Shown: one piece after another, positions 5,910 through 62,204 of the stretch
Layout: every line of letters starts with the position of its first letter
Position numbering within the stretch: the stretch's first letter is position 1
NCBI GenBank assembly: GCA_000004985.1
Contig: GG738917.1
Strand: one strand, 5' to 3'
From: Naegleria gruberi
Taxonomy: Eukaryota
Length of the DNA stretch: 64,000 bases
Notes under the pieces: generated by a model
The model's input: the letters and a program-made list of their open reading frames with translations, nothing else
The model's database searches: none
Told to the model about the DNA's origin: nothing
Position numbers and translations under genes: made by a program

Positions 5910-6958
5910 ATGCACCAACCACACAAAAGCGCTCACTCAAATCATCATGATCAAAAATTCGAATCGGATCATACAATTGATGAATATATTCCTCATCAGA
6001 GTGTACCGGAGGAACCTCTCTGGTTGAGAGAATTACAAACATTAGAACCTGTTAAGATTGAAATTGAACATTTTGTTGATGTTCATCACTTGAGAATTGT
6101 GGTAATATCGGATACTCATGGATATCATCGTTATTTGAAATTTCCACCTTGTCCAGAGGGAAAGAAGATGATTCTGGTGCATTGTGGTGATATGACTGAT
6201 CATGGAACGTTGGAAGAAGTGAGGAATTTTAATGCATGGTTAGGACATTTAAGGACTAGTTTCTCTCAGATTTATTGTATTGCTGGGTAGGTTCTTTTTG
6301 CTTAATAGTTTTGATTTGAATAATTTTAGTAATCATGAAATTGAATTTGCAAAATTTACAAAAGAAGGTTTGTTTGAAATCAAGAATGAAAATTAATCAA
6401 TTTGAAGAAATTCAAAAAAAGCTATTGACTAATTGTATTTATTTACAAGATGAGGAATTTACAGTTTGTGGATTGAAATTTTATGCAACACCTTGGTGTC
6501 CAAACATGTACGATTGGTTGTGTTTGAAATTTGAAAAACTGATCAACCAGCCAGAGAAGGTGAAGGATTTACAAAATTTTGATGATAAATTCTTTTTCAA
6601 GAATGATAAGGAATTGGAAAAGATCTTTTCCAAAATTCCAGAAGATGTAGACATTCTCATAACTCACTCTCCACCAAAATTCATTCTAGATTTCAATGAA
6701 TTTGGTTACAATAGAGGATGCTCGCAAATATTGGCAAAACTATTGGATTTACACAAGCTAAAGATTCATCTATTTGGACATATCCACTCAACTTATGGTT
6801 ACGAATTTTTGAGAAGATCCGATGTGTTACAAGCTGCTTCAAGAGAAAAAGATCACAACACTGGTCAGTCAACCAAAACTGAACCAAGTAATGATGACAT
6901 CCTATTTGTGAATGCAGCAAATTCACACAAATTTCAACCATTTTATTTTGATGTTTAA
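5910..6958 (+). CDS. Calcineurin-like metallophosphoesterase (MPPED/239FB-like). Spliced; proposed exons 5910-6286, 6330-6367, 6408-6958.
   Basis: MPP motifs VISDTHG, HCGDMTDHG, IAG|NHE (the GNHE motif is split by an intron, donor GT at 6287, acceptor ttttag at 6329), ILITHSPP, GCSQIL, HLFGHIHSTYG. The second micro-intron (6368-6407, gtttgt...ttgaag) is inferred so as to join the frames. The exon 2 boundaries are less certain. Confidence 0.65.
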
Positions 6959-21200: not shown

Positions 21201-21238
21201 CAACTATTCATTTCACAATAATTCATACTATCAAAATG

Positions 21239-21296
21239 AATTGAACCCGGGTCACGGCGATGGCAACGCCGTATTCTACCACTAAACCATCGACGC
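21239..21296 (-). tRNA. Second copy of the truncated tRNA-Gly(GCC) positions 1-60. It is identical to 19288-19345 and shares 13 bp of 5' flank (CCTTAATAAGAAG on the minus strand).
   Basis: Plus-strand aattgaacccgggtcacggcgatggcaacgccgtattctaccactaaaccatcgacgc is identical to the copy at 19288-19345. Both are truncated after TTCAATT. The flanks diverge beyond the shared cttcttattaagg. Confidence 0.6.
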
Positions 21297-22037
21297 TTCT
21301 TATTAAGGTAATAAGGCACCATATTTTAATAAAGAAGAACCCCAAAAGTGTTTTTATGCTTTAATAACAATTTGAATGATTCATGAATACCTGCGGTGGG
21401 AGGTAACATTGGCGTGGCTACCTCAACAACTAAAAAAAGCGCCATAATCACCTACAAGTTGGAGGTACCCTCAGATTGACATGGCTCTTAAATTTGTGAT
21501 AATGGTTTCGAGTAATTCTTACTCCAATAGTTCACATCATCCAAAAACTAATACTAGTAATTTTTAATACCATCATTTCCTTATTGAAACATCATCCTAT
21601 CATTCACCAACAAATTGAAGTGCATTCTTCATTCTTTTCTTACTCAATGGCCAACAAAACGATGGCTAATTGTTCAGTTTCCAACAACACACAATTGAAT
21701 GACCATAAAGAAACCTCAAGCTAATACTTTCCTTTTTCAATTCATATTCCCATCATCATACAAAATGATGAAATATCACATGAAATATTCAGTGAAAGAA
21801 GTAATCGTTAGACACAAATATTCAATTTAGAAAGGAGATGATTCACATCAAAAGAAATTACCATTCCTCATATGAATGCATTTGGAAATAATGTAAACCA
21901 CAACGGTTTTAAATCAAGCCACAACAGCAACTGATGGAAGACATGTCCACTCAATTCTTCTAGACATACAAAAAGTTCATCCACATAACAACAACACCTG
22001 ACATCCACCAACTGACACATTTCAATAATACACAAGG

Positions 22038-34953: not shown

Positions 34954-36162
34954 ATGAATGTCAAACACAAGTATCCATGTACACATTGCAAATCGGAAGT
35001 TTATTTTCAACCATCGTCGACTATGGCATCCAATTCAGCAGCCCTCGATGATGGTTTTGTCTTTATTACATCAAATGATGGTGGTGGCGGACAAACACCA
35101 ACCAACAATACAACAAGCCTAAATATTGAATGTAATCATAGCGGAAAGATTGAACGGATTGAAGATATTGAATATCTAACGGAGGATATATTGAGTTCCA
35201 TCACTATAGGAGAGGATTTGAAAAAGAATACAAAATTATCAACGCTCATCAATGATCTGTATTTATGTAATACTTGTATGACTGATTTGTTTGGTGGACT
35301 TTCGGAGGAAATTGAACAATTAGAATTGGAATGTAAATTATATGATGAAAAATTGAAAAAATCGAAAAAGTTTGATACGAATGGAATGTACAAGAAATAC
35401 ATGAAGGAAATGGATGAATTGAGGAATGAAGAGTTGGTTCTCAGAGAGCAGGTTAATGTTATACAGAATGATAGGCATCGAATTGGAAGAAATATTACAA
35501 GTTTACAAACTGAATATAATACTCAACAGGAAAGCGAGAAGAATTATTGGAAAATTTATTTTCAATTCATTCATAATAATCAGTTCCTTGCAGAGGAAAA
35601 TCGTAGAAAGAGTCAATTGATAGATAAGGAGGATAAAATTAGAAGGAAATCACCTCTTGCTGGCATGTTTCATTTGTGGTATGAAGGATCGTATGGTACG
35701 ATCAATGGATTGAGAATGGGTCGTCTAAGACATGATCCTGTAAGTTGGGAGGAAATCAATGCTGCCTGGGGACTTGCAGTCTTGTTGTTAGATCTTACTG
35801 CCCAACAATTGAATAATTTCAAATTTACCAAATACAAACTGGTGCCAAAGGCCAGCTGTTCATCCATTAAGGAACTGGAGAGTGGAGACAAGTATGATTT
35901 ATTCTTCTCTTCCACTAGAAACATTCAATCATTCAATGAGGGAATGAAATGCTTCCTATTCTGCCTTGAAGAATTATGTCAACATATTGGTATTGTAGTG
36001 CCAGGTTCCTCAATTGGAACTAGATTGATAGTCAAGGCCGATGAGGGTAAGATTCAAGACTTGAGCATGCTGTACAGTGTCGAAAGAGAATACGAGTGGA
36101 CAAAGGCATTGAAGTATCTCATCATTAACCTCAAATTTGTACAAAAGAATGTAATCAAATAA
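34954..36162 (+). CDS. atg6: Beclin-1 / Atg6 (Vps30) homologue: coiled-coil plus C-terminal BARA domain.
   Basis: FHLWYEGSYGTINGLRMGRLRHDPVSWEEINAAWGLAVLLLDLTAQQL matches the Beclin-1 signature ...GQFGTINNFRLGRLP..VEWNEINAAWGQTVLLL. A coiled-coil region is upstream. Confidence 0.85.
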   Translation: MNVKHKYPCTHCKSEVYFQPSSTMASNSAALDDGFVFITSNDGGGGQTPTNNTTSLNIECNHSGKIERIEDIEYLTEDILSSITIGEDLKKNTKLSTLINDLYLCNTCMTDLFGGLSEEIEQLELECKLYDEKLKKSKKFDTNGMYKKYMKEMDELRNEELVLREQVNVIQNDRHRIGRNITSLQTEYNTQQESEKNYWKIYFQFIHNNQFLAEENRRKSQLIDKEDKIRRKSPLAGMFHLWYEGSYGTINGLRMGRLRHDPVSWEEINAAWGLAVLLLDLTAQQLNNFKFTKYKLVPKASCSSIKELESGDKYDLFFSSTRNIQSFNEGMKCFLFCLEELCQHIGIVVPGSSIGTRLIVKADEGKIQDLSMLYSVEREYEWTKALKYLIINLKFVQKNVIK

Positions 36163-40120: not shown

Positions 40121-43100
40121 TTGCGGAGTATGAAAAATGTTTGCGCAAAAGTGAATCATTCAAAAAGTCACAAATCAACTCAACCAGACGTTTTTACTTT
40201 TCACATTCAAAAACAAAAAATGCGACGAGAGGACTGGTTGGTCCAAGCAACATGCGTTTTGTTCCAATTGTTGGCTACAGTACTATTGTGTAGTACTACT
40301 AACGGCCAAACAATCCAAGACGATCTCTATATTGTCCCAATTGCAAAAATCAATGTTCCAGAATATGGATCAGTATCATTCTATCCACAAGTCTACTACT
40401 TTAATTCAAGCTATTCTTCAAGTTCATTGCAAGTCTCTTACTCGATGGCAGATGGCTCAGCATTGAAAAGTGGCATGACAGTTTTGAATGGTGTATTGAA
40501 CTTTTATTCAAATCCTGCACATGTTGGTCAACTCAGTGTGTTGAGAAATGTATCTTATTATAATAGTGAAAACAAGTTTATTACAATTTCACATGTGACC
40601 ATATTTCAAGTCATTCCAACACCAACACCAAATCAATTATCCTTACTATTTTCAGATGATTTTTTAGGTGGTGATTTATCTAAATGGTATTTATTAGATG
40701 GCACTATGAAACTACAATCAGCTCAACTAAATATTTATCAAAACAATACGAAACTTGTGACTGTTAACAGTTTTGATTTAACTAATCAATTGGGTGTAAC
40801 CTTTACATTCAATTTATTGACCACATGGACAGCTTCTAGAGGAATTCTTATTTATGTGGACAAGTTGAATTATTATGAAATTAACTTGTCAGGTTCTTCT
40901 TTTACTATTACTCGTTGTGTGAATGGAAACCCAACAGTGATATTGCAAAGCACCAAGCTATTACAAGTTCATGCTGCAAATTATTATTCAAGTTATAAGG
41001 TTTATTTACAATATACCAAAGAAGGAATGATAATTACTATTGCTAAAATTGGAATATTGGCAAGTGATTATGTTCTAAATGTAGTTGATAGTTTTACTAA
41101 TATTGATGTATTCAAAAGTGTTAAATTGGGTTTTTATGAAAAAACTGTCGACTCTCCATCTCAATCAAATTTCAAAGTGTTACAATGTAAAGTTTACAAT
41201 GGAAAATTAATGCATTCCAGACAAGGTGTAACTTATCACGTTGATGGTAAAAATGGTAATGATTTGAATGATGGTCTTTCTAGTTCAAGTGCCTTCAAAA
41301 CATTGAATACAGCTCAATACCAATTATTACCTGATGACACTCTATTAATTCATGATTCAATCTATAGAGAAAGCTTTCAAATTAATAGACAAGCATCCGT
41401 TGACCATCCAATTACTATCAAAGCATTTAATCAACCAACCACAACATCCACTTTTACAACAACACCTTACACTCACACAGCTATTCTTGACGGATCGCTT
41501 GTTTTGGATAATTCTAAATTTAAAAAAATTACCAATTCAAACATTTATCAAATTGCACTGAAATTTACACCAGATGTTGTCTATCAAGATAATGTTAAAA
41601 TGAGCTTGGCAATGAAACCACTTCCAAGTAATTTACAAGATGAATATTTTGTTGACAATTACATTCATCCTAAAAACAATTCAATTCAATCATCATCTGA
41701 TAATTCAATGATTTATTTACAATTGGATGACATGTTCAAATATGATCAATTTGGTAGCCAGGCTCCAGATGATTTCTGGGTTGGTGCCATCTTTTATCAA
41801 TTTTACAAGGCAGGTGTCTATGTTATAACACGTAAAATAGTATCATATAATGCTACTACTAATACCATTGGATTGCTTTATAATGACTTGCCTGTTGTAA
41901 CAAGTGATTCGTATGCTATTGCTAATCATATCGGTTGCTTTTCACAAGCTGGCCAATACGTTGTGAATACGAACTTTATTTCAGTTTCATTAAGTACTGA
42001 CCCTACCGTATCTCAAACAATCCTGGAGGTTTCTGCACTGGACAATGGTGCTAAAATTGTTAATGGAATGGAGGGAATTAACCTTCAAGGTTTAATGGTT
42101 AGAAAATATCTAAGTGATGGAATTGTGTGTTCTGGTGGTTGCACAAATTTGGTAATCAGTAATTGCTCTGCCAAATATAATGGTGGATCTGGTATTAGTT
42201 TAAGTTATTCCTCAAATCTACTAGTTGATGGTGGTGAAATGTCACAAAATTTCAACAATGGAGTTAATTTTGGAGGTGCTGTAAAAGATTCCACAGTACA
42301 AAATACCTATACTCACAGAAATATTAATAATGGTATTTGGGTTGGTAATGCAGGAACACCTCTATTCTATTGTGTGAATATTCTATTGAAATCTAATAAG
42401 GTTGGTCCTCAAAATAGTGAAAGACTTCATCCAGATAACATTCAATTGGCCAGTGCTGATAATATTACACTCGAATCGAATATATTAACACAAGATGGTG
42501 ATCAAAATATGTGGATGGATAAGAATGGTCTTGTAATATTTAAGAGAAATATTATCATTGGTGGACCACTTGGTGTTAATAATGCACAGAGTGTTGTAAT
42601 GTTCAACAATGTGTTCTATAATTCTTATTTGAGATTTGCTGTTGCACCAGTTGGTCCATTTGTTGGACTTGATAATATTGCTGATTGGTCTGACATGTTC
42701 AATAGTATTACAGATACCAATTCACAATCTATTGCAAATATTCTTGTATGGTCAAGTATGAATTCACAATTATCGTCTACTATCAAATCCTATTCATCTT
42801 ACAAATCATTAACAACTGCAGATAAGACTGCTATTATTGATCAAATTAACAGTGTTATCAATAATACTTCTTTTATGGCACAATTTAAGGATGTAGTAAT
42901 CCCTTTTTTAGGAAAAGAGCATGTTGTGGCCTATCCATACTGGAATGCTATGACTAAACGAGGATTGATGGATAAATCAACTGGTAAACTCACAAACAGC
43001 AATAATGAAACAATTTACGAAGCTAAAGGTTTAACACGTGCTATTTTGGATGAAGTTTTTGATGGAATTATTTACAAAGGTCCAATTACCTTCTATCCAA

Positions 43101-43612
43101 GAATTGTTTCCATTAAGAATAATGCTTTCATTGAATCATTTTTACAATTACCTTCCACAACATACAGCTTACTACCATATTGGGAATCCAATTTCAATTA
43201 TATTGAACAACCTGCCTCGTATCATGCCAATATTTGGAAAGCATTAGCTGGCCCTAATACTGTATTCGAAACATCAGCTAAAAACACTACTCTCTACTTT
43301 AAGAATATGACAGCATATGATTTCCACTTGAATTGTAATTCAAATATTACACTTATTGACAAAGGAACCAATGTTGGTTTACCATATTATGGTCAAGCAC
43401 CTGATATTGGACCTTATGAATCCAACTGCAATAATGAAATCAATCCAGTCAATCCAGTCACTCCAAAACCTTCCATTTCAACTAATCCTCAAATCTCAGC
43501 AATTGCTTCACCAAAACCAAATCAGTCACGGGTTGTTTCTTCAACTACAATGCCTGAATGGAAAGTGTTCTATTTATTGATTGGTTTGATTATCTCAATG
43601 CTTGTGCCTTAA
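40121..43612 (+). CDS. Large membrane-anchored protein with right-handed parallel beta-helix (pectin-lyase-fold) repeats, and a C-terminal TM.
   Basis: Signal anchor LVQATCVLFQLLATVLLCSTTNG. Beta-helix repeats (NGMEGINLQG..., GGCTNLVISNCSAKYNGGSGISLSYSSNLLVDGGEMSQNFNNGVNFGGA..., NGIWVGNAG). C-terminal TM WKVFYLLIGLIISMLVP. Confidence 0.65.
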   Translation: MRSMKNVCAKVNHSKSHKSTQPDVFTFHIQKQKMRREDWLVQATCVLFQLLATVLLCSTTNGQTIQDDLYIVPIAKINVPEYGSVSFYPQVYYFNSSYSSSSLQVSYSMADGSALKSGMTVLNGVLNFYSNPAHVGQLSVLRNVSYYNSENKFITISHVTIFQVIPTPTPNQLSLLFSDDFLGGDLSKWYLLDGTMKLQSAQLNIYQNNTKLVTVNSFDLTNQLGVTFTFNLLTTWTASRGILIYVDKLNYYEINLSGSSFTITRCVNGNPTVILQSTKLLQVHAANYYSSYKVYLQYTKEGMIITIAKIGILASDYVLNVVDSFTNIDVFKSVKLGFYEKTVDSPSQSNFKVLQCKVYNGKLMHSRQGVTYHVDGKNGNDLNDGLSSSSAFKTLNTAQYQLLPDDTLLIHDSIYRESFQINRQASVDHPITIKAFNQPTTTSTFTTTPYTHTAILDGSLVLDNSKFKKITNSNIYQIALKFTPDVVYQDNVKMSLAMKPLPSNLQDEYFVDNYIHPKNNSIQSSSDNSMIYLQLDDMFKYDQFGSQAPDDFWVGAIFYQFYKAGVYVITRKIVSYNATTNTIGLLYNDLPVVTSDSYAIANHIGCFSQAGQYVVNTNFISVSLSTDPTVSQTILEVSALDNGAKIVNGMEGINLQGLMVRKYLSDGIVCSGGCTNLVISNCSAKYNGGSGISLSYSSNLLVDGGEMSQNFNNGVNFGGAVKDSTVQNTYTHRNINNGIWVGNAGTPLFYCVNILLKSNKVGPQNSERLHPDNIQLASADNITLESNILTQDGDQNMWMDKNGLVIFKRNIIIGGPLGVNNAQSVVMFNNVFYNSYLRFAVAPVGPFVGLDNIADWSDMFNSITDTNSQSIANILVWSSMNSQLSSTIKSYSSYKSLTTADKTAIIDQINSVINNTSFMAQFKDVVIPFLGKEHVVAYPYWNAMTKRGLMDKSTGKLTNSNNETIYEAKGLTRAILDEVFDGIIYKGPITFYPRIVSIKNNAFIESFLQLPSTTYSLLPYWESNFNYIEQPASYHANIWKALAGPNTVFETSAKNTTLYFKNMTAYDFHLNCNSNITLIDKGTNVGLPYYGQAPDIGPYESNCNNEINPVNPVTPKPSISTNPQISAIASPKPNQSRVVSSTTMPEWKVFYLLIGLIISMLVP

Positions 43613-43831: not shown

Positions 43832-45525
43832 ATGGATGGACCACAGTGCAATACCAAGTTGATGGTTTTTGTGGGTTTTTGGATTGTGTTGATGGTGATT
43901 ACTGTTTGTTGCTATGCAGAAAACGAAAGCGATGGAACCTATGCTGAAATTGGACTTTCGATTGGAAATACGAATTGGAGAGCTGCTGTTATGGTAAATG
44001 GCAGTTTGGAATGGATTGTGGATAGGAATGGAAATGTAGATCATCCCTCTTTTGAAAATATAAACAAGATTATTGTGAGCAATTATAAAATAATTAAAAG
44101 CAGAGATGGTTATTTATTGGAATCGAATAACAACATTTTTGAAAGAAATGGAACAGTTTATTGTAAAGTTAAATTAGATGATGGAATTGAAAAGGAAATG
44201 ACACCAGAGGAAATTTATTCGGATATTCTACATGATGTGAAAGAACTTGCTTTCCAATATTTGAAACGAAACATTACACATATTTTCCTTTCAGTACCAG
44301 CATATTTTAAACAAACTCAAGAAGATTATATCATACGAAACGCAGCTTCAAAACACAATTTAACAATTGTAAGATCTGTTCGAGATCCAATCATGGCTGT
44401 ACTAGCTCAAGACCATTTCCAAAAGATCAATAACAATTATACGAACGATTCAAACGATGAAAGAACTTTTTTAGTTGTGGATTTGGGAATTAGATCATTG
44501 GCTTTAAATATTGTAAATGATGATTTTGGATTTTATGAAATACTTGCTTCAGAATCCTATGGTCAATTGGGAACTGAAAGATTTCATATGAAACTGAGAG
44601 AATTATTCGTAAAAGAGTTCAAGAAACAACATTTATTGAATGAACAATCAAATATTTTGGAAAATCAACAATTAATGAATTATTATTAAGGCAAGCTGAA
44701 AAATCAATGATTTCCCTTTCAAAAGAAAATTCTGTGCGAGTGAATATTCCATCTTTATTCGATGGAAAGGATTTCACATTCGAATTGACCAGAGAAATAT
44801 TTGAAAATCAATGCCAAGACCTACTTGAACAAATAGCAGCCTCTGTTTTTCGGCTATTCAATCGATCAGATGTATTCGCAGAAGAAATTTCACAAGTGAT
44901 TCTTTCTGGAGGTGGAACACTCAATCCTTCAATAAGGAGTGCAATTATTGATCGATATTTCAAAGATGGAAATGTTTCGAATATTTTACAAGCATCAACC
45001 ATAGGTGCAGCTCTTCAAGCAGCTGTAGTATATGAACCATTCCAAACTGTTTCTTTAATACTGGCACCATTTTCTCTTGGGATTGAGAATTCTGACAGCC
45101 AGTTAGTGAAAATCATTGAAAGAGGAACAGTTCTGCCAACTGTCAAGAAGATGGTCTTTTCTAGTGAAAGAGGATTTCTTGATTCTGTTGATTTTTGTAT
45201 ATTTGCTGGTGATAACATTTATGAAATGGAAAAGAATATTCAATTAGGTCAATTGACCCTGGAAGGAATTGAGTTGACTAAAAAGGGGAAAGCTCAAATT
45301 GAAGTTTCTTTTGAATTAAGTGATAGTTTCATTCTCAATGTTACTGCCACTGATTTAACAACCAAAGTAAAGAGTGAAAAGATAATTTCTTTGGAAAAGT
45401 TAGAAAGTAATAGGGAACTCACTAACAAACTTGAACAGGATGCTACGAAAGATGGAGAAGAGAAGGAAATAAGAAAATTACTCCATACTTATAATTCACC
45501 AAGTGTTCTCCATGAAGAATTGTAA
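43832..45525 (+). CDS. Divergent ER-type Hsp70 family protein: signal peptide, degenerate nucleotide-binding domain, SBD-beta, and a C-terminal HEEL. The two ORFs (43832-44689 and 44707-45525) are joined by a 1-nt frame shift at about 44645-44690.
   Basis: Hsp70 motif positions: IGLSIGNTNWRAAV (cf. IDLGTTYS), TPEEIYSDILHDVKELAFQYL, FLSVPAYFKQTQEDYIIRNAASKHNLTIVRSVRDPIMAVLA, FLVVDLGIRSLALNIV (cf. DLGGGTFD), ILSGGGTLNPSIRSAI, ASTIGAALQAAVV, PFSLGIEN...LTLEGIEL...AQIEVSFELSDSFILNVTATD (SBD-beta). Ends SVLHEEL. The frame of ORF2 is open back to 44644 and aligns with Hsp70 ...LRTACERAK. Confidence 0.7.
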
Positions 45526-45859: not shown

Positions 45860-46057
45860 ATGTCTCTTTCATCATTACCCACCGAACTCTTCCTAATCAT
45901 TGCTGATTTCTGCTCTTCCGATGATTTGACGCTCCAAAATTTCTCACTTTTATCACAATGCACCTATCGGGAGATTTATTTAAAGCATCGGAAGATGTTT
46001 CCCATTAGAATGAAGAGATCTATTATGAATTACAAAGGAATAAGATGCTTTCTGTAG
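45860..46057 (+). CDS. Small F-box-like ORF, possibly the first exon of a multi-exon gene extending to about 46546.
   Basis: MSLSSLPTELFLIIADFCSSDDLTLQNF (F-box-like). Downstream ORFs 46216-46341 and 46346-46546 lie in other frames. The structure is unresolved. Confidence 0.25.
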   Translation: MSLSSLPTELFLIIADFCSSDDLTLQNFSLLSQCTYREIYLKHRKMFPIRMKRSIMNYKGIRCFL

Positions 46058-48928: not shown

Positions 48929-51900
48929 TTGAAATTTCAATATATTTTATGTTTAAAAAAAATGCATCAAGAAAAGAACTTCACGGATGTGCTCATCTCT
49001 TTACATGATATTGATTCCGAAAGTGATAGTGTGAATTTATCTTGCTCTGAATTATTGATCAGCAAATTTCGGCAAACAATATCGGAAAGACTTAAACTAA
49101 ACGAAAGTATTTATGAGCACATGAAACAACTGATAGAGTTGCATGGTGTGAACAAATGTATTCCTTTCGTTCGTGAAAATCCCTTTCCTGATAATGATTG
49201 CACCCTAGCCTTTTTCAAAATCCTTTCTTACTGTGGTTTATTATTGGAATTTGCATCCGAAAGAATACGAAACGATGAAACACTTGCATTGATTGCTGTA
49301 CAGAATGATGTAGATGCCTTGATGGATGTGAGCATTAATTTGAGAGAAAATAGAGATTTTGCTTTAAAAGTTGTGCAATTAGATATTTCAAATAGTTACA
49401 AAAAGAGTACGATGAAATATTTGAACAAATTCAAAGACGATTATGAAATTGTGTTGAAGGCAGTTCGCCAATGTGGTATATCACTTGCAAATACAGCTAT
49501 AAGATTGAGATATGACAAGCAAATAATTGAAGAAGCTGTCAAAAGTTGTGGAACAGCTCTATCCTATGTTCCAAAAGACTTTATCGATAGAAATTTGGTA
49601 ATGAGTGCAATATCATCAGATGCAAAGGCTCTTCAATACGCCCTAAATTTTAAAAACGATAAGGAAGTAGTATTTGCTGCATTTCAAGTGGGTAAAGATT
49701 CTTTTCATTTTGCTTCGGATGAATTGAAATCAGATCGAGAATTTTGTATGAAATTGGTAAAGTTAAATGGCCATACGATTAGATTTTGTTCAGACGAGTT
49801 GAAAAATGATAAGGAGATGGCTATTATTGCTGTGAAATCAGACCCATATTCATATTATTGCCTGCCTCCAAATATGAAGAATGATAGAGAAATATTGTTA
49901 AAATGTGCCTCTATTGCTCTTTTTGACCTACCCTATGATATAAGTAGCGACAGAGAGTTTATGAATAGTTTACTAATTTCAGGAAAGCAATTATTGAACT
50001 TTTTAGAATATTCGGCATTGACAAGAGATTTTGAATTAGAACTCATTGGAAGCAATTGCAATTATCAATATGGTTTATTTGGAAGAATTAAAGAGGAAGA
50101 AGAACTATTCACAAGAATTGTTAACATAGATCCTTCTGCATTCATGTTTGCAACAAGTGATAATATTAGGAACAATAAGCAAATTGTTATGAATGCACTT
50201 TTTTATGAGGCAGAAATTCTCGGTAATATATCAGAGGAATTGAAAAATGACAGAGAATTGTTTGAGCTAGCCATTCGATTACATGATAATGTGCTTTATT
50301 ATGCATCAATGAATTTGAGAAATGATAAAGATTTAGTAATGATGTCAATCGAATATGATGCCTTTTCCTTTCAATACGCCTCTGAAGAATTGAAAAACGA
50401 CAGACAAGTTGCAGAGCTAGCAATAACGATCAATGGCCTTAATTTCCAATTCGCTTCTGAAGATTTGAGAAATGACAAGGAATTTTGCAAACTGGCGACT
50501 CGTAATTCTTACCATTGTTTAAATGAATATTTAGGTGCTGACATGAAAAGAGAAAGGAATCTTATTTTGGAAAATGTAAAGAAGCATACTTCTTTCATTC
50601 CAGATGAATTCAAAGATGATAAGGAAATAGTTTTTGAATCAGTTTCAGTATATGGTGGAAATATTGAACAAGCATCTTTTGATTTAAGAAATGATGATAG
50701 AGAGTTGATACGAACGGCAGTAAGAAATGGCTGTCCATTAAGCTCCTTAGATAACAGAATTATAGATAGAGACCTAGTCTTCGAGTCAATCCTTTATGGT
50801 AGCGCCTTGTGCATCGTGTCCGTTGTTGAGGAATGGCCAGAAATAGTAGATGAGGAAAAAATCATTCATTTTCAAATTTTGAGAGGATGTTGGGATTGGT
50901 TCAAATATTTCAATCCTCTATTAAGAAATGATAAAGATTTTGTAAGGAAATATGTAAAGATTTGTGGCGACATATTGGAATATGTTTCAGAAGATTTTAA
51001 AAATGATAGAGAAATTGTTAAAGAAGCAGTTAGCAACAGTGCAAATGCATTTAAATACGCGTCAGATACACTGAAGAATGACAGAGAAATTGTGGAAGCA
51101 TTGAAGAATGCAGAAGAATCAGTATATTTCATATCAGGTCTTAAAGACAGAGAGTTAGTATTGCAAGCTGCTGAAAAAGGAGTTATTCTAAACACACTCG
51201 AAGAATTTACGTATGATAGAGAAATTGCCTTAAAAACAGTTTCCAAGGCTGGTTCAAAGTTACTTTACCTATCCTACGATCTAAGAAGTGATAGGGAAAT
51301 TGTATTAGAAGCTGTAAAGAATGACCACTCATCTCTTGAATATTCCATGTATGATTCAAGATATGATAAGGATGTCATCTTGAAAGCAGATCTCCCTCTC
51401 AGCCATGTGGTACCAGCTCTAAGAAATGATAGAGAGCTCGTACTAAAGTTGCTCGAAAAACCCCTAAAAAAGTACAAATATCATTTCGATATTATAGATG
51501 ATACGATTGAGCTAGAGTATTATTCTGGATCACAATTCGTGTATCTCTCAGATGAATTGAAAGAAGAATTCAAATCGAATAAGGAAATTATGTTGAAAGC
51601 CATTAAATTTGGGCCAACAGCAATCAATTATGCCTCCAAGGAGCTTCAAAATGATGAAGAGTTTGTATTGGAAGCTGCTCAAATCAATGGTATGGTACTA
51701 AACCATGTACTACCGAAATTTAAACATAATCGAAATGTTGTAATGAAGGCAGTTCAACAAAATGGTATGTCCCTCTCTCATGCATGCAATGAATTACAAA
51801 ACGACATTGAAATAGTTCAAAACGCTCTCAAATCCCATGTTTGTGCTTTTGAATATGCCGGTTATAAATTGAGAGGCGACAAGGAATTTGTATTGGAAAT

Positions 51901-52213
51901 GACTAGACAAAATTATCATGCTTTTAAGTTTGCCAGTAGTGATTTACAAGGTGATGAAGACATTATTTCACAAGTTATGGAAATTAATATTGAGACACTG
52001 AATTGTGCCTCCTATTCATTGCGGAATAATGTTGACTTCTTGAAGAGGATGAACAAGGATAATAGACTTGTGGAGAGGGCTTCCTTCAATCTACAAAGAT
52101 CCATTAACATGCAAGGATTGTTGGATATTGAAGAAACAGACCCAAAGAAATATGAAAAGCTACTAGATTTTTACATTGACAGGTTAGTTGTGGCCACAGA
52201 GAACTCAAATTGA
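48929..52213 (+). CDS. Repeat protein (1094 aa) built from about 25 tandem 35-38-aa units of consensus LKNDRE[IVF]VL.AV.QNG.AL.YAS.E, resembling DUF4116-type repeats.
   Basis: Visible periodic repeats, for example LKNDKEMAIIAVKSDPYSYYCLPPNM, LKNDRELFELAIRLHDNVLYYASMNL, LRNDKDLVMMSIEYDAFSFQYASEEL, LKNDRQVAELAITINGLNFQFASEDL. The antisense ORFs are shadows. Confidence 0.7.
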   Translation: MKFQYILCLKKMHQEKNFTDVLISLHDIDSESDSVNLSCSELLISKFRQTISERLKLNESIYEHMKQLIELHGVNKCIPFVRENPFPDNDCTLAFFKILSYCGLLLEFASERIRNDETLALIAVQNDVDALMDVSINLRENRDFALKVVQLDISNSYKKSTMKYLNKFKDDYEIVLKAVRQCGISLANTAIRLRYDKQIIEEAVKSCGTALSYVPKDFIDRNLVMSAISSDAKALQYALNFKNDKEVVFAAFQVGKDSFHFASDELKSDREFCMKLVKLNGHTIRFCSDELKNDKEMAIIAVKSDPYSYYCLPPNMKNDREILLKCASIALFDLPYDISSDREFMNSLLISGKQLLNFLEYSALTRDFELELIGSNCNYQYGLFGRIKEEEELFTRIVNIDPSAFMFATSDNIRNNKQIVMNALFYEAEILGNISEELKNDRELFELAIRLHDNVLYYASMNLRNDKDLVMMSIEYDAFSFQYASEELKNDRQVAELAITINGLNFQFASEDLRNDKEFCKLATRNSYHCLNEYLGADMKRERNLILENVKKHTSFIPDEFKDDKEIVFESVSVYGGNIEQASFDLRNDDRELIRTAVRNGCPLSSLDNRIIDRDLVFESILYGSALCIVSVVEEWPEIVDEEKIIHFQILRGCWDWFKYFNPLLRNDKDFVRKYVKICGDILEYVSEDFKNDREIVKEAVSNSANAFKYASDTLKNDREIVEALKNAEESVYFISGLKDRELVLQAAEKGVILNTLEEFTYDREIALKTVSKAGSKLLYLSYDLRSDREIVLEAVKNDHSSLEYSMYDSRYDKDVILKADLPLSHVVPALRNDRELVLKLLEKPLKKYKYHFDIIDDTIELEYYSGSQFVYLSDELKEEFKSNKEIMLKAIKFGPTAINYASKELQNDEEFVLEAAQINGMVLNHVLPKFKHNRNVVMKAVQQNGMSLSHACNELQNDIEIVQNALKSHVCAFEYAGYKLRGDKEFVLEMTRQNYHAFKFASSDLQGDEDIISQVMEINIETLNCASYSLRNNVDFLKRMNKDNRLVERASFNLQRSINMQGLLDIEETDPKKYEKLLDFYIDRLVVATENSN

Positions 52214-57040: not shown

Positions 57041-59496
<2,456 letters not shown>

Positions 59497-59713: not shown

Positions 59714-62204
59714 TTAACAAAAGATTGGTCTGCAATCTTCTTCCTCGCACATCAAGCTGGAATTTTGGAAGTGATTAATAAGTGCTATCTTCCCTTGAAT
59801 TCTGGCATAAGTGATATCACAAACCTTTTCACTGTTAAACTTTTCCCACTTCTTTCTATTGAATCTTTCAACAAATGGAATGATTAATTTTGGATCAGCA
59901 AAGTTGATGAATGCATATCCAACATTGCACTTGTTCTTAAAGTCAATAGGAAGATAGAAAAAGTCATATGCTGTTTTGAACTCTACATCTACAGTTTCCA
60001 AAAGCATCTTTTGAGTGTACTTGTTTGGAATATTCTTAACCATGAGAGTAGTTCTCTTATCAATACCACATCTAACCTTTTCAAGATCCAATTTGAATTG
60101 TTCCTTCTCCTCAGCGCTGATAGCTCTTGGACGTCTTGACTTGTTGTTTCCAGGATGAAGAAGAGCATCATTCTTTGGTGGAGAGAGAGTTTCAATATTG
60201 GTGGTTGTTGGAAGAGAGCTGCTGATTTCAATAGTTTCTGGAGTACCTTGAAGAGTTGGACTGCCAGAGTCAGAATCAGAGAATGAAGGGAATCTATTTC
60301 TCAAACCACCAGGTCTAGAGTATTCAATCTTAATCTTTTTACCCTTCAACTCGGTCTTGTTGAGTTGCTTCAATGCTCTTTCAGCATCTCTTGTATCATA
60401 GAACTCGATGAATTTGTGGAATTTCTTGTTAGGAGTTTCTCTAATTTCCTTAACATCTCCTCCAAATTGAGTAAAAATAGTTTTTAACTCTTCATTAGTG
60501 ATAGAAGGATCTAGATTGAAAACAACCAATGTCTCTTGGTTGAGTTGTTCCTTTTCTGGTGGATTTTCCTTTGGAATGGAATAGTGAATATCAATCTTTC
60601 TCTTCTTGATTAACTTGGATTGTAAATTCTTCTTTGCTTGCTTGGCGTGTCTAATATCGTAGTAAGTAATCATGACAAAGCCACGATGCTTGCAAGAAGT
60701 GTACATTTGTCTTATTGGTCCAAAGCTTTCAAAGAGTATTCTCAATTCTTGATCATCAACTACACTAGAAATATTTCTAACAAAAAGTGTTCTTGAAGGA
60801 TATTCACCAGGATGTTTTTGACTCTTTCCTTCATCATCACTGTCTGTTGAAGATCCATTGGAACCATCTTGATTGATTTGGTCGTTTGGATTATAACCAC
60901 CAGCCATTTGAACATTAGCAGTATTTGGGAATAAATTAATACCGTATGGAATTTGTTTGAATCCATTTTGATTGTTATTGGCTTTGTATCCTCCCATTGG
61001 TGAAGAAGAATAATCATTTTCCATATATCCAGTAGCATAGGAAGTCATAAGAGGACTACTTTGAGATGGTGACATTTCAAGATGGCCAACAACATATTGC
61101 TCCTCATTATATCCACCATTAACATACATAGATGGATTATTGGAGTACCAAATATTATTTGAAAAAGAATCTAATTCATCTTCTTCCAAAATTTTCATAT
61201 TCACGGATTTAGAAATGTGGTTATTCATTCTATCAATATCTATATCATTCTTATAAAGTCCTGTTGATGTAAATGCCGGAATAGGAGGCATACTGTTACT
61301 TCTTCCACCTTGAAGTAAAGCTCTAGTTTGTTGAGTGATCTTATTTCCTGGATGATATTCAACTCTAGGAGAGTTACTTGGTGACATTGAAGGAGAAGGA
61401 TGTGATGGAATCAAACCAAAGGTTAAAGGATCAACGTCAGCAGATCCAAATAATGATGAACCTTGATTTGATGGGAATCCTGTATATCCCATATTGTTGT
61501 TGAAAGAAGTGTTCAATTTAACATTTTGTCTTGATGGATTAGTTGGAGTACCAGGAGCAAGAAGTGGACTACCAACGTATCCATGATTATCATAGTTTTG
61601 TGGTGGGAGAGCTGGTGATTGAGGATGATATCCTTGATTATATACAGTGGTGGATGGATTTACATCAATTCTTGGAGAAAGTTCTAAGAAGATAAGAAAT
61701 TAATAAATTGAAGAAGCACTAATACTTACTTGTCAAATGTCCTCCAATAGGAGGGAATCCACTAGAATTACCTCTTTGTCTGGCAGCAAAAGGAACGTCA
61801 AATCTTGGAGAGAGATCCCTTTGATGACTACCATTAGAATCCAATGAAAGAGATTGTTGATGAGTTGGTTGAATATTGTTATTAAATGGTAACTTGTTTG
61901 GAGAGGTACTGGTAGAGATGTCATGGTGCAAATTGTTGTTATCTTGATTTAATGACAATTCCATGAGTGACATCGATAGTTGTGGTATATGATCTAAACT
62001 GTCACCACCTTTAAACGAACCATTGTTTGGATTGTTATTATGCATAGAATTATTACTATTTAGATAGGAGTAAGTCAAGAGAGGTGATGATGGCACGTTT
62101 TGGTTCATCATCGTATTATTCGGTCTACCAAAGAACGTCTTGTTAGAATTATTATCACCATAAACCATGGTAGAGGTAGTATTTGCTTGATGATCAAGAG
62201 TCAT
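59714..62204 (-). CDS. Mei2-like RNA-binding protein (three RRMs including the characteristic C-terminal Mei2 RRM3). Two exons: 61730-62204 and 59714-61683 (intron 61684-61729).
   Basis: C-terminal RTTLMVKNIPNKYTQKMLLETVD...YDFFYLPIDFKNKCNVGYAFINF...KKWEKFNSEKVCDITYARIQGKIALINHFQNSSLM is a Mei2 RRM3 signature. Upstream RRMs: RTLFVRNISSVVDDQELRILFESFGPI and TLVVFNLDPSITNEELKTIF. Exon 1 ends ...GHLTSK with GTAAGT. Acceptor cttcttag. The frames join. Confidence 0.8.

Follow-up and report, generated by a model that had tools for sequence, protein, structure and literature searches.

A putative BiP-derived Hsp70 of Naegleria gruberi with a degenerate nucleotide pocket, no lid and a single-base frame break

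The segment 43832-45525 on the plus strand of a 64-kb window of the genome of Naegleria gruberi NEG-M (the window being the whole stretch of DNA analysed, 64,000 nucleotides) is a single Hsp70-family gene that is divided between two reading frames and has lost most of the recognisable ATP-binding motifs of its family. It raises the question of whether such a gene encodes a working ATP-driven chaperone, a chaperone-like protein that acts without nucleotide, or no product at all. The interpretation favoured here, with a fair but far from complete degree of confidence, is that the gene belongs to a pair of N. gruberi paralogues derived from BiP, the Hsp70 of the endoplasmic reticulum (ER), which would reside in the ER lumen and act independently of nucleotide; the identity of the protein is much firmer than its function.

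The gene comprises two long open reading frames (ORFs). ORF A (43832-44689, phase 2) encodes 285 amino acids, while ORF B (phase 1) is open from 44644, contains an ATG at 44707 and ends with the stop codon at 45525, so that the two open frames overlap at 44644-44689. ORF A matches positions 94-256 of the Pfam HSP70 profile (PF00012; curated cut-off 20.6 bits) with 76.6 bits (E 1.6e-21), and ORF B matches positions 255-526 with 129.3 bits (E 1.9e-37), which identifies them as consecutive pieces of one Hsp70. The protein restored by adding one A at the junction consists of 564 residues and scores 210.1 bits against the same profile (E 6e-62). Fortuitous ORFs are excluded by their length: in 500 shuffles of this stretch of 32% GC the longest ORF had a mean of 63 and a maximum of 128 codons, and a run of about 280 codons free of stops has a probability of around 1e-11.

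The public annotation already splits the gene at the frame break. ORF A is an exact match to the GenBank entry EFC37505.1 (NAEGRDRAFT_74718, 285 residues), and the last 124 residues of ORF B, from 45151 onwards, are identical to EFC37506.1 (NAEGRDRAFT_74719). Both entries carry the name 'predicted protein', lie on the same 223-kb scaffold and are annotated in GenBank as unrelated. The region between them, 44671-45150, is contained in neither model; it encodes residues 281-440, which comprise parts of subdomains IIB and IIA of the nucleotide-binding domain (NBD), the interdomain linker and the first half of the beta-sandwich substrate-binding domain (SBD-beta). The sequences are in the public databases but carry no gene name, and the window copy is wrongly modelled. 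Literature searches returned no paper that names these locus tags or accessions or describes an ER Hsp70 with this combination of features. NAEGRDRAFT_74718 and NAEGRDRAFT_74719 represent one gene, and the two models should be merged or flagged as a pseudogene.

The best homologue of the restored protein is NAEGRDRAFT_30761 (EFC48571.1), an uninterrupted protein of 526 residues encoded on a separate 708-kb scaffold of the same genome. It is a paralogue rather than an orthologue, is 48% identical to the window protein overall and ends in HDEF. The identity is unevenly distributed, reaching 61% in the N-terminal part of the NBD, which contains the altered loops, and 50% in SBD-beta.

In an AlphaFold2 model the restored protein forms an actin-like NBD, a beta-sandwich SBD and one short terminal helix, with a mean predicted local distance difference test (pLDDT) score of 81.7. 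The top Foldseek matches are all Hsp70s (E 1e-46 to 1e-36), headed by a lid-truncated BiP (7a4v, E 4.7e-46). BiP also heads the sequence scores against the PDB for both paralogues, ahead of Hsp70/Hsc70, DnaK, mortalin and Ssb. The window protein scores 178.6 bits with BiP, 167.9 with HSP70-1A, 154 with Hsc70, 134-151 with DnaK and 136 with mortalin, and the paralogue scores 180.2 bits with BiP and 154.5 with Hsc70. This ranking, which consists of pairwise scores, points to a descent of the pair from BiP. NCBIfam gave only sub-threshold matches to DnaK and HscA and is uninformative for eukaryotic subfamilies.

SBD-beta is the part closest to BiP, with 37% identity and eight strands modelled at a pLDDT of about 80-92. 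Within it, LAPFSLGIENSDSQLVKIIERGTVLPTVKKMVFS aligns with a 33-residue segment of BiP, and SLFDGKDFTFELTREIFE of the window protein is close to SFFEGEDFSETLTRAKFE of BiP. The hydrophobic core of the peptide cleft is kept at the equivalents of I401, F426 and V436, while the arch residues are altered, with Ser at the equivalent of M404 and Glu at that of A429. The interdomain linker retains a hydrophobic SLIL stretch.

The nucleotide pocket presents a different picture. It was mapped by alignments with BiP, cytosolic Hsp70 and DnaKs and with hmmalign to a profile of 70 canonical Hsp70s, and its positions are given here in Hsc70 residue numbering. In the phosphate-1 loop SIGNT stands in place of DLGTT, so that D10 is replaced by S43 and T13 by N46. 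The column of the catalytic K71 is occupied by N78 with K79 next to it, the alignment being uncertain by one residue either way. E175 is replaced by D185. The phosphate-2 loop reads DLGIRS instead of DLGGGT; its G201-G202 correspond to I220-R221 (Arg-Lys in the paralogue), T204 is replaced by Ser and D206 by Ala. Among the residues that surround the adenine, the contact pair K271-R272 has become Met-Ile and the stacking R342 has become Leu, and D366 is likewise replaced by Leu. D217, at the position of D199, is the sole residue kept of the set D10, K71, E175, D199 and T204. As a set, the conserved motifs of the Hsp70 family (phosphate-1, phosphate-2 and adenosine) and its catalytic residues were thus not found in their canonical form.

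The same alignment reveals the loss of whole structural elements. About 25 residues are missing at the start of subdomain IB, corresponding to a segment of 27 residues in BiP, and in the model the strand and helix that should precede N78 are absent, leaving helices at 77-82 and 85-91. At the other end, the Pfam match extends no further than position 526 of the 599 in the profile, and SBD-beta is followed by about 45 residues, in contrast to the lid of about 100 residues in BiP. The alpha-helical lid (SBD-alpha) is absent; the model places helices at 522-526 and 528-555, with falling confidence.

These features are shared by the intact paralogue. Its phosphate-1 loop, IGLSIGNTHW, carries the same substitutions as IGLSIGNTNW of the window protein, its phosphate-2 loop is LVVDMGRKSLDAT, and both phmmer and hmmalign set its N49 on the catalytic Lys of BiP. 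The two proteins have the same pocket residues replaced and the same deletion of about 25 residues in subdomain IB, and both lack the lid. Since the same substitutions occur in both, in their most conserved region, the degenerate state is ancestral to the duplication and has been maintained, and does not reflect decay of one copy. With nearly every residue that contacts ATP or Mg replaced in the two paralogues, it is most likely that neither of them binds or hydrolyses ATP.

The opposite view, that the window protein is an ordinary, fast-evolving duplicate of BiP and still a working ATP-driven Hsp70, is improbable. It would account for the preservation of the fold, of D199, of the two glycines of the adenosine motif, of an Arg equivalent to R167 and of the hydrophobic linker. 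However, it would require function in spite of replacements at D10, T13, the K71 column, E175, G201/G202, T204, K271/R272, R342 and D366 in both paralogues, with bulky or charged residues now at the G201/G202 positions, and in spite of the shared loss in subdomain IB. The Pfam score of the window protein is 210 bits, as against 907 bits for BiP.

Both ends of the window protein suggest that it is targeted to the ER. The segment L10-Y28 has a mean Kyte-Doolittle hydropathy of 2.56 over 19 residues, the maximum of the protein; the 19 residues are uncharged, preceded by Lys and followed by C-Y-A|E. The model places a low-confidence helix at 7-29, outside the folded domains. From its hydropathy this core is predicted to act as a signal segment, either cleaved off as a signal peptide or kept as a signal anchor. 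The C-terminal HEEL fits the PROSITE pattern [KRHQSA]-[DENQ]-E-L, and a human protein with the same ending is located in the ER (PMC2140024). HDEF, at the end of the paralogue, binds the KDEL receptor at 23 uM, compared with 18 uM for HDEL, and retains reporters less than HDEL or KDEL do, though more than variants with Ala at position -1 (PMC7617889). For Naegleria, both a KDEL receptor and K/HDEL motifs of canonical type are reported (PMC10903960). The two paralogues keep the ending H-[DE]-E-[LF], although in the preceding 44 residues they share no more than 25% identity, which argues for selection on the retrieval signal. Taken together, the sequences suggest an ER localisation of both proteins.

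The window protein contains ten N-X-S/T sequons and the paralogue four, while mammalian BiP has none; this count fits a lumenal glycoprotein, but an Asn-rich composition would also produce it.

At the protein level, the initial annotation of this locus had proposed a pseudo-chaperone or holdase-like BiP paralogue with an N-terminal signal peptide, degenerate loops that suggest loss of ATPase activity, and a HEEL terminus, and this description is supported. Both halves and the restored protein match the Hsp70 family, BiP outscores all other solved Hsp70s for both copies, the L10-Y28 core and HEEL are present, and the loops read IGLSIGNTNW and VDLGIRSLA where IDLGTTYS and DLGGGTFD would be expected. 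The alignment of ATP-contacting residues with BiP and Hsp70, which it had named as the check on the pocket, revealed losses wider than it had noted.

The second problem posed by the locus is the frame break. The shift had been placed in the interval 44645-44690, and the change from phase 2 to phase 1 indeed falls there. It lies exactly between CAA (Gln280, 44669-44671) and ATT, where one A is absent from caacaa(a)tt. At the junction the window protein reads ...ILENQQ in frame A, followed by INELLLRQAEKSMISLS in frame B, and the corresponding sequence of the paralogue is ...LLENQQVNDLLMSHAEIAMIALS; with one A inserted (caacaaatt) the two proteins align across the junction without a gap.

Splicing of the two frames is one way in which the gene might be expressed without repair. 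The claim of the initial annotation that no GT..AG intron is available stands for the break itself, since there is no GT dinucleotide between 44619 and 44733, but not for the wider region, where two in-frame GT..AG pairs start further upstream, at 44617-44690 (74 nucleotides) and 44562-44695 (134 nucleotides). They are the only such pairs across the break, and either would restore the frame, giving a product that lacks 25 or about 45 residues of subdomain IIB. Their donors (GTTCAA at 44617 and GTCAAT at 44562) and AAG acceptors are non-consensus. The local standard is set by two candidate introns of the window that join adjacent ORFs in frame, 59033-59076 (plus strand, 44 nucleotides, GTATGT..CAG) and 61684-61729 (minus strand, 46 nucleotides, GTAAGT..TAG); these are the best supported, with GTATGT/GTAAGT donors and CAG/TAG acceptors. 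A less certain candidate of 53 nucleotides (6277-6329, plus strand) is located at a third frame-changing ORF junction. Both candidates would moreover excise residues conserved with the paralogue, 25 of them (FKKQH...INELLLR) in the case of the 74-nucleotide intron. The segment is coding in the paralogue (FKKQH, LENQQ and N-LL are conserved) and corresponds to a helix of subdomain IIB formed in all Hsp70s. An unusual intron is accordingly given very little credence.

Still less probable, to the point of being nearly negligible, is a programmed -1 ribosomal frameshift or transcriptional slippage that mends the frame. The need for a -1 shift is all that speaks for recoding: the site AAT CAA CAA TTA lacks a slippery heptamer of the form X XXY YYZ and, in place of a long homopolymer, has only AA, so that neither frameshifting nor slippage has support in the sequence. 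The paralogue, in turn, needs no recoding event.

There remain the two alternatives named in the initial annotation, a recent pseudogene and an assembly indel, and the choice was well drawn, with odds that are roughly even. The window copy contains no further stop in 564 codons. In a relative-rate test with BiP as the outgroup, 38 lineage-specific changes were counted in the window copy and 47 in the intact paralogue (p = 0.33), of which 21 and 27, respectively, lie 3' of the break, and six other outgroups gave the same picture. The Pfam scores of the two proteins are level (210 and 205 bits), and so are their best PDB scores (178.6 and 180.2 bits). The window copy is therefore not drifting and, having neither other stops nor a faster rate than the intact paralogue, it carries a lesion that is either very recent or an artefact of the draft assembly. 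The missing A would thus reflect either an error of base calling or assembly or a null mutation that arose very recently and may be confined to one haplotype, with little room for anything else.

Should the deletion be genuine and fixed in NEG-M, the window copy is a plain pseudogene without a full-length product, and NAEGRDRAFT_30761 is the only functional member of the pair. The chance of this is a little short of even. The frameshift stands in the deposited assembly and is respected by both public gene models, and the assembly is not generally error-prone here, as no other unexplained frame break was found among about 30 genes of the window. The intact paralogue could render the window copy redundant. 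A further datum comes from NAEGRDRAFT_77063 (EFC35283.1), a model of 124 residues that the same assembly places on a contig of 1,403 bp; it is a near-copy of the C-terminus of the gene, ends in HEEL and differs from it at five of the 124 residues (K484E, A488S, V513E, I518L and T539S). Naegleria has been described as a heterozygous diploid (PMC9928731), which makes it probable that this contig represents the other haplotype; it might cover the break. The divergence of this second copy is consistent with a pseudogene, but since the variant contig was assembled separately, read depth per haplotype may have been low. The pseudogene account is also difficult to reconcile with the lack of a second disabling mutation in 1.7 kb of sequence with 32% GC, with the absence of rate acceleration relative to the intact paralogue, also 3' of the break, and with the retention of HEEL; for the same reasons the deletion, if real, must be very young. 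It entails that no haplotype carries CAACAAATT at 44666-44673.

If, on the other hand, the missing base is an assembly or base-calling error, which is about as probable as a fixed deletion, the organism itself has an intact gene and the models are to be merged into one protein of 564 residues. Insertion of one A makes the sequence fully collinear with the paralogue, all the other signs are those of a gene under constraint, and the lesion lies inside a short run of A. A run of two bases, however, is not a typical site of Sanger errors, and both the restored 564-residue protein and the version spliced by removal of 74 nucleotides are absent from a collection of 15 billion proteins, which perhaps holds no independent N. 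gruberi data. This account would be at odds with independent reads from both strands carrying CAACAATT.

The distribution of the family was examined by word-indexed searches and by an exhaustive profile search of 1.84 billion representatives. Only N. gruberi entries rose above the general Hsp70 background in these searches; in the profile search they scored 1034 and 594 bits and were followed by generic or tandem-fused Hsp70s with no more than 299 bits. Comparison with sister species, which the initial annotation had advised, was possible in so far as the proteomes of N. fowleri and N. lovaniensis were searched, but it yielded no orthologue in either of them. That these proteomes are contained in the database follows from a control, in which the Beclin of the window recovered its orthologues in N. 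lovaniensis (41% identity) and N. fowleri (38%); such low values also indicate a deep divergence within the genus. No match was returned when metagenomes were scanned for peptides typical of the family, such as MVFVGFWI, FENINKI and LSIGNT[HN]W. The family seems to be confined to the N. gruberi lineage.

Several points weigh against the interpretation of the pair as nucleotide-independent ER proteins under constraint. D199 and the two glycines of the adenosine motif are kept, and a Lys directly follows the Asn at the catalytic-Lys column, so that some non-canonical binding of nucleotide is possible. The hydrophobic N-terminal core could be a membrane anchor instead of a cleaved signal peptide. 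The gene model of the paralogue starts with MGKESNN and lacks a signal segment, which could be a gene-modelling error. The five differences in NAEGRDRAFT_77063 are compatible with relaxed constraint at the locus. Finally, the absence of the family from N. fowleri and N. lovaniensis implies that any function it has is dispensable at the level of the genus.

The coordinates of the features of the gene are collected in Table 1.

Table 1. Features of the Hsp70-like gene and their positions in the window
Feature	Position	Strand	Remarks
Frame A coding part, residues 1-280	43832..44671	+	Signal segment, IA, IB, IIA and start of IIB
Predicted signal peptide or signal anchor, M1-A29	43832..43918	+	Core L10-Y28; possible cleavage after C-Y-A
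Degenerate phosphate-1 loop IGLSIGNTNW	43949..43978	+	D10 to S43, T13 to N46
N78-K79 at the Hsc70 catalytic Lys71-Arg72 position	44063..44068	+	Directly 3' of the IB deletion of about 25 residues
Degenerate phosphate-2 loop LVVDLGIRSLALN	44471..44509	+	D217 kept; I220-R221
Cryptic GT..AG pair, 74 nucleotides	44617..44690	+	Donor GTTCAA, acceptor TTATTAAG; judged unlikely
Frame break caacaatt	44666..44673	+	Paralogue alignment requires caacaaatt (Gln-Gln-Ile)
Frame A tail in the assembly	TAA 44687..44689	+	Six more codons (LMNYY) before the stop
Frame B coding part, residues 281-564 and stop	44671..45525	+	Rest of IIB/IIA, linker, SBD-beta, C-terminal helix, HEEL
Degenerate adenosine motif ILSGGGTLNPSI	44899..44934	+	GGSTRIP to GGGTLNP, R342 to L
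Substrate-binding beta-sandwich, residues 413-520	45067..45390	+	Best-conserved part; eight strands
Short C-terminal helix, about 40 residues	45391..45510	+	Replaces the alpha-helical lid of about 100 residues
HEEL end and TAA stop	45511..45525	+	HEEL codons 45511-45522, stop 45523-45525

The window as a whole is gene-dense, with about 33% GC, and encodes eukaryotic proteins, among them Atg6/Beclin, a half-ABC transporter and RGS, Ras and RRM proteins. The Atg6/Beclin gene (34954-36162, plus strand) is identical to an N. gruberi predicted protein. Directly 5' of the Hsp70-like gene, the ORF 40121-43612 (plus strand) encodes a protein of 1163 residues with hydrophobic segments near both ends. 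It matches the right-handed beta-helix family only weakly, with a score exactly on the Pfam cut-off (25.9 bits, E 8.8e-06), and is likely to be a surface or secreted protein. On the 3' side, a short F-box-like ORF (45860-46057, plus strand), starting with MSLSSLPTELFLIIADFCSSDDL, possibly represents exon 1 of a larger gene. Further downstream, 48929-52213 (plus strand) encodes a protein of 1094 residues that consists almost wholly of 22 DUF4116 repeats (Pfam E 9e-177). The only tRNA gene of the window is that of tRNA-Gly (GCC) at 21226-21297 on the minus strand. Two other ORF pairs, 10717-13986/13902-16892 and 33473-34576/31728-33572, were examined for indels and can be read as separate adjacent genes.

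What the pair might do can be outlined from the parts that are retained and lost. The N-terminal signal segment would direct the window protein into the ER, where the KDEL receptor would retrieve it by its HEEL and the paralogue by its HDEF. With a dead pocket the proteins would lack the nucleotide-driven switch between open and closed states, and SBD-beta with the hydrophobic linker, no longer covered by a lid, would bind unfolded or hydrophobic segments in a fast-exchanging, nucleotide-independent manner. To judge from the domains present, such binding is the most likely activity, by which the proteins would act as holdases or as accessories or decoys in the BiP system, a logic comparable to that of the non-cycling Ssz1 in the cytosol. 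Alternatively, the dead NBD could serve as a docking surface for partners of the BiP system, which would again resemble Ssz1.

The ER is usually credited with two members of the Hsp70 superfamily, BiP and Grp170/Lhs1. If the proposed interpretation is true, the pair would represent a third type of ER Hsp70 and a natural experiment on the capacities of an Hsp70 scaffold that has lost the ATP cycle: it would have discarded the pocket and lid but kept ER retention and the peptide-binding domain, giving an ER counterpart of the cytosolic Ssz1. The biological reach of this is limited, as the family was found in only one species, one copy is broken and the function proposed is putative.

Among known systems, BiP/GRP78/Kar2 (HSPA5) is the closest, being the best match in sequence and structure, with the same order of NBD, linker and SBD-beta; the window protein also resembles BiP in its KDEL-type C-terminus and in the predicted signal segment at its N-terminus. 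It differs from BiP in being only about 27% identical, in its far lower Pfam score and in its replaced motifs, deletion in IB and missing lid. BiP is universal, whereas the Naegleria pair is restricted to N. gruberi. Because the pocket is degenerate and no orthologue was found in the searched proteomes of N. fowleri and N. lovaniensis, the protein is classified as a BiP-derived paralogue and not as BiP itself.

Similar features were found in some uncharacterised fungal BiP-like paralogues, namely those of Lecanicillium saksenae (KAJ3495257.1), Podila humilis (KAG0336342.1), Entomortierella beljakovae (KAF9432190.1) and Ascodesmis nigricans (TGZ80582.1). All four have a signal segment and end in HDEL or HEEL; the phosphate-2 loops of the Lecanicillium, Podila and Entomortierella proteins are degenerate (DHGA-ALH, DLSTHSLD and HLGGNSLQ, respectively), and the Lecanicillium (588 residues) and Ascodesmis (617 residues) proteins lack the lid. 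Unlike the Naegleria pair, however, they retain both the catalytic Lys and the IB segment, stand much nearer to BiP and score only 171-184 bits against the Naegleria profile, below the 231 bits of ordinary BiP; for these reasons they look like independent, convergent derivatives of BiP and not members of the same family. It is conceivable, though on present evidence rather unlikely, that dead-pocket, lidless ER Hsp70s form a recurrent and unrecognised class of BiP-derived pseudo-chaperones that arose independently in Naegleria and several fungi, and either act as holdases that need no ATP or influence the BiP cycle as regulators or decoys, for instance by engaging its J-proteins and nucleotide-exchange factors or even BiP.

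Grp170/Lhs1, the Hsp110-class protein of the ER, is of large size, with a long acidic insertion in SBD-beta and an extended C-terminal helical domain. The window protein, with 564 residues and a compact SBD-beta, has neither the long acidic insertion nor the extended C-terminus of that group, and no Hsp110-class chain is present among the 60 PDB sequence matches listed. HSPA13/STCH is an Hsp70 relative that has an N-terminal signal, is associated with the ER or microsomes and is shortened at the C-terminus. It comprises nothing beyond an active ATPase domain and so lacks the domain for peptide binding; in the window gene the situation is reversed, the pocket being degenerate and SBD-beta being kept.

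The best precedent for an Hsp70 that works without cycling is provided by the atypical Hsp70 Ssz1 (yeast)/HSPA14, which has an Hsp70 fold and a truncated substrate-binding domain and does not depend on an ATPase cycle. Chains of Ssz1/HSPA14 are found among the Foldseek matches of the window protein (6sr6, 7x3k and 5mb9), with 20-21% identity and at rank 42 or lower, behind all canonical Hsp70s. Ssz1 is a cytosolic protein that, with its partner Zuotin, forms the ribosome-associated complex, and it still binds ATP. The Naegleria proteins differ from Ssz1 and HSPA14 in carrying ER signals and a full SBD-beta.

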